From Parcubacteria bacterium RAAC4_OD1_1 (lineage in GTDB: Bacteria > Patescibacteriota > Minisyncoccia > Phycocordibacterales > UBA9973), in assembly GCA_000505065.1 (NCBI GenBank), contig AWSN01000001.1:132247-196246 (forward strand): DNA of 64,000 nt, given 5' to 3'. The notes beneath the pieces are model-generated. The model had not been told where the DNA came from. It did no database searches and saw only the letters and a program-made list of their open reading frames with translations. Below are positions 7,431-8,522 of the stretch, piece after piece. The translations under genes were made by a program, and so were the position numbers. Positions within the stretch are counted from its first letter, which is position 1; each line of letters opens with the position of its first letter.

Positions 7431-7670
7431 ATGAGTAAAGTAACAGTATATAGTACACCTACATGTCATTTTTGCCACATGGCTAAAGATTTTTTTAAGG
7501 AAAAAGGGGTTGAGTTTGAAGATTTTAATGTTGCTACAGATCTTGAAAAAAGAAAAGAAATGTTTGACAAAAGTGGTCAGATGGGTGTGCCTGTGATAAT
7601 TATTGAAAATAATCTTATTGTTGGTTTCAATAAACCAAAAATAGTAGAATTATTGGGTATAAAAGAGTAG
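7431..7670 (+). CDS. Glutaredoxin-like (NrdH/YruB family) protein
   Basis: CHFC active site, GQMGVPVI motif. Confidence 0.9.
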   Translation: MSKVTVYSTPTCHFCHMAKDFFKEKGVEFEDFNVATDLEKRKEMFDKSGQMGVPVIIIENNLIVGFNKPKIVELLGIKE

Positions 7671-7735
7671 TATTTTTTTTAAAAATATCGTATTATAAAA
7701 GCATCCTAATGTAAAAAGGATGTTTTTATAATTTT

Positions 7736-7996
7736 GCCCTCGTAGTTCAATGGACCCCATCATAATGCTTCTGTAGTTCAATGGATAGAACAGTCCCGTC
7801 CTAAGGGATAGATGTCAGTTCGATTCTGGCCAGAAGCACAAATAAGCATTATGAGGGGCATGTGCCATAGTTCCGTCCTGAGGTGAGAAATGGGTAGGGA
7901 CCCATTTCGCAAGACCTTGAGCGTTTTGTAATCAAAATGCGAAAGGTATACCGCTTTTGTAAGAAGTAGATGCACGTTCGATTCGTACCGAGGGCA
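7736..7996 (+). pseudogene. Interrupted tRNA-like shell enclosing tRNA-Arg(CCU) and a structured insert
   Basis: 5' GCCCTCG-TA-GTTC-AATGGA (7736-7754) pairs perfectly with 3' CGAGGGC-A (7989-7996), preceded by T-arm GCACG-TTCGATT-CGTAC; D-stem 3' strand and a normal anticodon arm are not recognisable. Confidence 0.65.
7767..7838 (+). tRNA. tRNA-Arg(CCT)
   Basis: GCTTCTG/CAGAAGC acceptor, GTTC/GAAC D-stem, GTCCC-GTCCTAA-GGGAT anticodon arm, GTCAG-TTCGATT-CTGGC T-arm. Confidence 0.9.
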
Positions 7997-8032
7997 CTTT
8001 TATTTTTAACCTATTTATGCTATAATATACTT

Positions 8033-8320
8033 ATGGATCAAGAGATTAAGAATCTTTTAGAAGAAAATTTGAGATTATCTAAAGAGAATAATGAATTACT
8101 TATAAAGGTAAGAAATTTTCAACGTTGGTCCCAAATAAGTAAAGCTTTATATTGGCTTGTAATAATAGGTGTAGCTTTGGGTGCATTTTATTTTATAAAG
8201 CCGTATTTTGATAATGTTTTAAATATTTATACAGGTGGAGTTTCTGATATAAATATGATAAAAGATTTAGGTGGAAAGGTTGATATAAATTCTATAAATG
8301 AATTATTAAAACAGTATTAA
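8033..8320 (+). CDS. Hypothetical single-TM protein
   Basis: Start moved to MDQEIK (TATAAT at 8021-8026); coiled coil then TM segment. Confidence 0.8.
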   Translation: MDQEIKNLLEENLRLSKENNELLIKVRNFQRWSQISKALYWLVIIGVALGAFYFIKPYFDNVLNIYTGGVSDINMIKDLGGKVDINSINELLKQY

Positions 8321-8332
8321 TAGTTTACATAT

Positions 8333-8405
8333 GCCGAGATAGCTCAGTTGGTAGAGCGCTCCCCTGAAGAGGGATAGGTCCCCAGTTCGAGCCTGGGTCT
8401 CGGCA
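8333..8405 (+). tRNA. tRNA-Phe(GAA)
   Basis: GCCGAGA/TCTCGGC acceptor, loop CTGAAGA, T-arm CCCAG-TTCGAGC-CTGGG. Confidence 0.95.
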
Positions 8406-8522
8406 CACAACATATGAACTACTTCATATGTGTCCAGGCGAGAAAGATTTTTCGTTATTTAATGTAATCATTAAATCGAAAAATACCTGGCTATGTAATA
8501 GCCGAGCCTGGGTCTCGGCACA
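8388..8522 (+). repeat. 20-bp direct repeat of the tRNA-Phe 3' end flanking a ~95-bp structured insert
   Basis: CGAGCCTGGGTCTCGGCACA at 8388-8407 and 8503-8522. Confidence 0.9.

Follow-up and report, generated by a model that had tools for sequence, protein, structure and literature searches.

Architecture of the locus

We analyzed a 64,000-nucleotide stretch (hereafter the window) of Parcubacteria bacterium RAAC4_OD1_1, whose genome (G000; further G-labels denote genomes of the same genus and L-labels individual loci) consists of a single contig of 694 kb with 31% GC and is 95.7% complete. The locus under study (7736–7996, plus strand) lies in the gene order lepA, an ftsB-like gene, tRNA-Gly(CCC), glutaredoxin, the nested tRNA genes (the nest), a 95-aa ORF without family assignment and tRNA-Phe; an equal layout was found in named records labelled Patescibacteria or Paceibacterota. 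A simple scan detected neither a promoter-like site on the plus strand nor a terminator at the locus.

At the core of the nest lies a complete tRNA-Arg(CCU) gene (7767–7838 or 7839), already recognized in an earlier note made from the letters alone and borne out here by an ARAGORN call (score 116.7), an Rfam RF00005 match of 62 bits and the formation of 21/21 stem pairs, leaving no stem position unpaired. It is the only CCU gene that ARAGORN calls in G000, where AGG accounts for 828 of the 179,941 codons in 426 long frames and a gene for tRNA-Arg(UCU) is present. The inverted repeat around it (7755–7770/7844–7858), likewise reported before, comprises 11 perfect pairs and four more beyond one bulged base; at least 11 pairs at like spacing were found at 1 of 5000 random genome positions. 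The left arm (7755–7766), a CCCC-type palindrome arm with pairing extendable to 7770, has a compensated variant in G092. On the other side, a short trailer, the right arm, whose first 5 bases directly repeat the 3' end of the inner gene, and a 4-base tail together occupy 7839–7862. Arms and inner gene form a first insert (7755–7862, hereafter the cassette), which is present as a single copy in G000 and replaces four bases at the border of D-loop and D-stem of an outer tRNA gene. The tail recurs in G092, L072, L153 and L172, and since the unrelated loci L153 and L172 share both the tail and the base loss, two D-stem pairs were probably lost upon insertion.

The outer tRNA-like sequence (the shell) forms 7/7 pairs in its acceptor stem (7736–7742/7989–7995). 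Its 5' piece (7736–7754), comprising the 5' strands of acceptor and D-stem together with the D-loop, is identical at 19/19 positions to the intact syntenic alleles of G015, G016 and G022, and its 3' piece (7967–7996; variable loop, T arm, 3' acceptor strand and discriminator) matches G015 and G016 at 30/30 positions and G022 at 26/30. The earlier description of the shell holds for the acceptor stem and the T arm; it had overlooked two parts lying in between. One is a middle piece (7863–7882) with an altered 3' strand of the D-stem, the 5' strand of the anticodon stem and the anticodon loop with CCT at 7877–7879, identical to intact alleles at 14–15 of 20 positions, and the other is a second insert (7883–7966). 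Because its ends are identical to intact syntenic alleles, the shell is, as judged from sequence, the resident syntenic tRNA-Arg(CCU) gene cut by two inserts. Two of its four D-stem pairs are lost and its anticodon stem is broken as well; it cannot refold to a normal tRNA. The inner allele differs from the shell, with 54–58 of 72 positions identical to shell-type alleles, and the two had rightly been regarded as Arg paralogs. The full 261 nt fold with a z-score of −5.3 relative to 200 shuffles, and the whole nested arrangement of complete tRNA, inverted repeat and outer shell was confirmed. Two readings offered before as alternatives, a mobile element carrying a tRNA and a decayed tRNA, are both supported and appear as two halves of one thing: a broken resident Arg(CCU) gene and an insert that brings its replacement.

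It had also been proposed that pairing of the flanks competes with the inner acceptor stem, and this competition turned out to be weak. A cloverleaf stacked on the 11-bp arm helix reaches −34.8 kcal/mol, compared with −34.7 kcal/mol when the gene's first four bases pair with the right arm, and the unconstrained ensemble prefers the latter (pair probabilities 0.85–0.96). As both folds are equal in energy, the arm need not block folding of the inner tRNA.

The second insert is a separate, independent 84-bp insertion into the shell that substitutes for about three bases of the 3' strand of the anticodon stem. It belongs to a family of dispersed three-hairpin repeats with three copies in G000 and matches in 43/93 genus genomes, which reside in relic copies of Asn, Phe and Arg tRNA genes and inside other palindromes. 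Across 22 copies, the hairpins are 94.7% paired and show 79 double-sided changes vs. 27 in shuffles (0/500), with two count measures not above shuffles (130/500 and 164/500) and slid controls lower. Since the repeat occurs both ways round in tRNA-Phe copies, it is best regarded as a DNA hairpin element, and Rfam gave no intron, ribozyme or known-RNA model for either insert. Hairpins are also found at other RNA genes of G000. At 8333–8522 of the window, hairpins come after the tRNA-Phe, along with 20 bases (8503–8522) that repeat the 3' end of this gene, and like layouts with a hairpin related to the second insert lie 3' of the tmRNA and of tRNA-His. At G000:C1:321650–321910, a 5' relic of tRNA-Asn is split by the three-hairpin repeat directly upstream of an intact tRNA-Asn, as in at least ten relatives.

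An assembly chimera joining the tRNA genes of two strains, which the earlier note wanted excluded and which is conceivable because G000 is probably a metagenome assembly and tRNAs are repeats, has virtually no chance of being correct, since the nested unit also occurs with divergent sequence in G092, L072, L189 and L218, a contig from sequencing run X6 covers 7731–7865 with three differences, and covarying arms would not arise from misjoining. A contig from run X2 is identical over 7867–8081; runs X2 and X4 may represent the source campaign and were therefore not counted as independent. The run matching the stretch best, X1, is a simulated metagenome and was left aside. In run X16, which may be an RNA run, a contig spanning 7689–7894 with 14 other letters and 19 gaps represents a relative's nest and is silent on transcription. 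Among the run matches listed, there was no joint skipping an insert and no single piece across the whole stretch, and the runs listed as containing the stretch included no RNA run.

Nested tRNA genes within the genus and beyond

Among 93 screened genomes of the genus, 74 matched an anticodon-arm pattern, and 75 regions from 72 genomes were fetched. All 75 adjoin glutaredoxin or the downstream ORF, and most of them contain one intact tRNA-Arg(CCU). Nested Arg(CCU) genes are present in 6/72 of these genomes, five of which (G000, G092, G025, G103 and G063) were identified by pattern among the 93 and the sixth (G111) via the fetched regions; G109 likely retains a nest remnant. The shell anticodon reads ACT in G092, L072 and L189, L218 has shortened arms, and L199 has lost both the right arm and the 3' shell. 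In addition, the sole Arg(CCU) gene at the syntenic locus is damaged-looking or lacks the 5' acceptor strand in G022 (L301) and G061 (L230), which suggests that rescue is not always needed and that selection for a spare copy may be weak.

In larger scans, a doubled-D-arm pattern gave 50 loci when one genome per species was used and 107 in metagenomes, with no nested match in viral contigs. Dozens of nested records were found in Patescibacteria and Bacteroidota, and at 99 distinct loci a tRNA lies behind a 5' relic, though not every one of these loci has a 3' shell. The inserts occupy the D-loop and positions 21/22, 31/32, 34/35, 35/36 and 37/38. Within an arm family, like arms return in many genomes at set loop positions of tRNA genes that share the anticodon of the insert. 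We distinguish three cassette arm families, with names coined here: CCCC...GGGG, to which the window's cassette belongs, CCTGCC...GGCAGGCGGG, the commonest, with arms of 19 and 18 bases at position 21/22, and TCCCG...CGGGA from Bacteroidota. Triple nests were detected in G063 and at L072, where a window-type cassette has its own tRNA split by a third cassette. In the Bacteroidota nests L061, L084, L091, L094, L102, L160 and L181, the arms prolong the inner acceptor stem and the shells all lack the identical 8 bases of the anticodon arm.

The large scans admitted a locus only if its two D-arms lay on the same strand and its inner gene scored 100 or more, which makes antisense, non-cognate and decayed inner copies uncountable there; the unbiased sample comprises three loci. 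A shell-free search of 401 genomes returned five matches, three with tRNA cargo and two without; in 3/3 cargo matches, a Thr(CGU) gene lies inside a Thr(CGU) shell in like orientation. Among 22 pattern matches without a called tRNA, tandem repeats or chance accounted for 21, and the remaining one was a nest cut by a contig end. A free or circular cassette was not seen.

Fate of inner genes and shells

None of the 99 inner genes scores below 110.6 (filter 100), and it is the shells, not the inner genes, that gather further repeats and deletions. For the CCTGCC-type shells (n = 42), an automatic one-cut rule, unable to score two-insert shells such as that of the window, classified 22 as rejoining to an intact tRNA with the same anticodon and 20 as damaged, re-invaded or partly deleted; as misfits of this rule, L128 was mis-registered (intact) and L201 is probably not one of the 42. 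The rejoinable shells differ from the inner gene at 6–25 compensated positions. Perfectly rejoined shells could also be yielded by ongoing selection on shells, and it is chiefly on this intact half that a rival explanation with still-working shells rests. For the nest itself, we are nearly certain of a dead shell and a replacement gene.

In that rival explanation, which extends the earlier ideas of an intervening sequence removed as RNA or of a processing scaffold, a precursor would be spliced or processed so that inner and outer tRNAs are both made. The covarying arms would fit as well, and group I introns in Patescibacteria tRNA genes are reportedly the subject of a preprint. After two excisions, however, 2/4 D-stem pairs and the anticodon stem of the window's shell remain broken, and the shell anticodon is mutated in three relatives. 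Insertion sites differ among loci, the second insert lies in either orientation in tRNA-Phe copies, and 3' shell parts are deleted at L076, L145 and L199. A group I or II intron core gave no Rfam match at gathering score in the window, nor at E up to 10 in 7650–8100. For a bulge-helix-bulge (BHB) motif, 0/4 helix pairs form at the window's D-loop junction and 1/4 at the 21/22 junction of L124, the two junctions scored, and neither a splicing endonuclease (PF01974) nor RtcB (PF01139) was found in the 95.7% complete G000. With excision failing to restore the stems, varying sites and no splicing enzymes found, RNA-level processing is a very improbable explanation. Known tRNA introns and split tRNAs (group I, archaeal BHB) likewise interrupt a tRNA gene in the D-loop or anticodon arm; the nest differs in lacking ribozyme core, BHB and enzymes, and in that the interrupted gene is broken and the intact gene lies within the insert. 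Nor does an Arg or Thr isoacceptor gap, for which the earlier note proposed to look, call for a joined product: ARAGORN finds Arg CCU, UCU, UCG and GCG as well as Thr UGU, CGU and GGU. Its calls in G000 also include the unusual anticodons Pro(AGG), Ser(ACU), Ile(UAU) and Stop(UUA), and CAU genes number only two. Separately, a reverse-transcriptase route was considered and rejected: no RVT_1 was found in G000, and the inner genes have genomic leaders and trailers, not a uniform CCA end.

Probable horizontal spread

We inferred a tree by a quick method from flank proteins (64 of 75 rows, 567 columns; 11 rows, including that of G063, were excluded for being too short), which could themselves have moved along with the unit. 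In this tree, G022, a genome without a nest, is the sister of G000 (SH-aLRT 99), and the sisters of G103 are also without a nest. G000 and G092 have a common cassette, as do G025 and G103. AU tests, performed by a quick method with groups fixed beforehand, reject both the clade G000+G092 (p = 6e-5) and the clade G025+G103 (p = 6.5e-5). L072 has a G000-type unit with a flank 95% identical to that of G099 from a distant clade. Its contig is labelled as a gammaproteobacterial bin, yet the flanks resemble G099, and it is probably misbinned.

In G025, the shell is like the alleles of its neighbours G065 and G008, which fits a fresh insertion, and the inner gene equals that of G103. Shells with young ends and an old, shared, decayed middle are consistent with the unit having been transferred through homologous replacement. 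The scattered carriers could also stem from repeated loss. Altogether, we consider a DNA-level cassette with horizontal spread quite probable.

Candidate drivers of the cassette

One scenario dispenses with a dedicated element: a hairpin repeat would enter a dispensable tRNA gene, template switching at 5–7 bases of microhomology during ordinary break repair would later place a copy of an entire tRNA at the hairpin tip, and the scar would hitch-hike by homologous recombination. It would account for empty palindromes in D-, anticodon- and T-loops of dead copies (G063, G111, L060, L085, L318) and for the right arm repeating the last 5 bases of the inner gene at the window's nest and the last 7 in L072 and L159; moreover, the CCU genes of G022 and G061 show that decay without a spare is possible. 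What makes it unlikely is that the 19- and 18-base arms recur in Arg(CCU), Arg(UCU) and Thr(CGU) nests of distant lineages, which is too stereotyped for accidents, and that many compensated changes usually separate the inner from the shell allele, which local copying does not explain. An Arg(UCU) gene would also be unlikely to tolerate the empty step.

We would likewise give low odds to a REP-associated Y1 (HUH) transposase moving the cassette as a REPIN-like unit with tRNA cargo, whose single-stranded circle would be inserted into exposed loops of the cognate tRNA gene without target duplication. Insertion into loops without such a duplication suits single-strand "peel and paste" transposition as known from IS200/IS605. 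G000 contains six Y1_Tnp ORFs (open frames of 221–250 aa), four of them above the Pfam cut-off, and each adjoins its own palindrome pair. These transposase-like genes (G000:C1:33249, 61964, 75911, 442114, 499537 and 531908) have distinct pairs, each dispersed in the genome. However, 0/6 of the Y1-linked palindromes match the cassette arms or the second insert, and the one protein scored against NF047646 reached 22 bits, below the cut-off of 80. Both inserts remove 3–4 target bases, unlike a clean Y1 insertion, and the genes seen between tRNA relics and full copies are of the GIY-YIG and not the Y1 type, with Y1 flanks read in G000 only.

The third candidate, proposed by association, is a small GIY-YIG nuclease, which we put forward tentatively, at close to even odds. 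Neither nuclease nor transposase genes are present at the nest itself. Elsewhere, G000 encodes three small GIY-YIG proteins of 84–88 aa; one gene lies between inverted arms, and one closes with a hairpin that belongs to the family of the second insert and has a tRNA-Gln 3' repeat behind it. In the region G000:C1:349784–351068, tRNA-Gln(UUG) is followed by an ORF, a small GIY-YIG gene with the repeat hairpin as its final codons, the tRNA 3' repeat and an opposite-strand tRNA-like gene with the anticodon UUA. Among the best 29 small GIY-YIG loci of the genus, 9/29 lie within 500 bp of a tRNA, and five clearly show a 5' relic, the nuclease and a full tRNA. By eye, inverted arms flank 11 of these 29 loci, one with CCCGTAG-type arms like those of the G063 and G111 cassettes. 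At L318, L320, L325, L326, L328 and L300, a small GIY-YIG gene has on one side a 5' tRNA relic interrupted by a palindrome and on the other a full tRNA (Leu, Asn, Ser, Phe), with the ORF ends reaching up to or into the tRNA. The PDB chains closest to the small GIY-YIG proteins are UPF0213 proteins, and ComEC is present in G000.

Two described systems offer parallels. In the available text, SsnA of Neisseria is a 94-aa GIY-YIG protein that cleaves single-stranded DNA close to hairpin repeats and influences transformation, with single-domain genes of ~90 aa between short inverted repeats (NTS/SRM) in an IS-like arrangement (PMC11893778). The cassette differs, as far as that text goes, in that the SRM is unlike its arms and that it holds a whole tRNA gene and no nuclease, and the same text makes no mention of tRNA (PMC11893778). 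A single-domain GIY-YIG gene flanked by inverted repeats occurs elsewhere in G000 and in the genus, not at the nest. The SRM consensus has no match in the nest, 0/29 at the GIY-YIG loci and one in the genome; because the motif fails to match, the likeness may be read as "works like", not as membership. SegB of phage T4, according to the accessible part of its description, is a free-standing GIY-YIG homing endonuclease directed at a tRNA motif, through which tRNA genes are propagated by gene conversion; it differs as a double-strand cutter acting between co-infecting phages, with no nesting (PMC2330249).

Relationship to known mobile elements

The nest does not belong to the introns, MITEs, REPINs, SRM repeats or integrase islands on the features tested, while borrowing from each. 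Like a MITE, the cassette has terminal inverted repeats around a non-coding core. Multiple dispersed genomic copies, another MITE feature, are seen for the second insert and not for the cassette, and a target-site duplication is absent: the shell pieces join without a repeat, and 3–4 target bases are replaced. REPINs are described in the portion of the source available as hairpin doublets, about 100 bp long and associated with RAYTs (bioRxiv 2024.07.17.603846). They share with bacterial MITEs and Rickettsia palindromic elements, in the available texts, the character of non-coding dispersed hairpins of ~100 bp nesting in palindromes and genes (PMC3733652, bioRxiv 2024.07.17.603846). The cassette differs from these in its functional-looking gene cargo that replaces the target, in arms that are not multi-copy in G000, and in the lack of a match to the Y1-linked REPs of the genome.

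Integrative elements such as prophages and islands enter tRNA genes, restore them via an att-site repeat and carry an integrase. They likewise leave one working copy and a relic; they duplicate one end only, whereas the nest holds a complete gene in an insert of about 100 bp within both halves, at varied internal positions. No integrase lies by the nest, and the three integrase genes of G000 are >370 kb away. At G000:C1:572512–587400, a tRNA-Lys with its 3' repeat 15 kb off and integrase genes at both ends marks a likely integrated element.

Discussion

Our preferred reading, to which we assign a probability of roughly 0.6, is that a resident tRNA-Arg(CCU) gene was split by a hairpin-armed insert with a complete second tRNA-Arg(CCU), the dead shell being likely left by a small non-autonomous gene-replacing cassette that a small GIY-YIG nuclease probably moves in trans. 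In such a process, single-stranded cassette DNA would fold into a single long hairpin capped by the cloverleaf, and a small GIY-YIG nuclease of the Ssn/Slx1-like kind might nick the hairpin or cloverleaf DNA. Incoming DNA, which could be taken up by a genome with ComEC, would be patched in, with tRNA homology steering it to the cognate gene. Two modes of entry are conceivable: the cassette alone could enter a resident allele, as in G025, or the cassette could arrive together with the old shell middle, with tRNA ends and flanks serving as homology, as in G000, G092 and L072. RNase P and 3' trimming would then release the inner tRNA from the transcript. That the process iterates is visible in the triple nests.

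More speculatively, and with doubts on our part, such nests may represent a minimal class of selfish DNA: a ~100-bp hairpin-clamped tRNA gene whose cargo would act both as homing guide and as antidote, entering loops of a gene with the same anticodon, replacing it and repeating the step until Russian-doll loci result, with tiny GIY-YIG nucleases lodged at tRNAs as its drivers in trans in Patescibacteria and Bacteroidota. Literature searches, with most subscription journals outside their scope, found no description of nested tRNA genes. The window's locus contributes a census of the genus, tests of horizontal spread, a count of intact vs. decayed copies and a second repeat family. For annotation, scanners call the inner gene only, and the shell stays hidden.

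The nests reveal a route by which foreign alleles overwrite tRNA genes of bacteria with tiny genomes, with successive replacements readable in the sequence. If the cargo guides targeting, the cassette would be the smallest self-targeting and self-compensating mobile unit known to us, and a testable role would emerge for the small GIY-YIG genes and palindromes that abound, unexplained, in tiny genomes.
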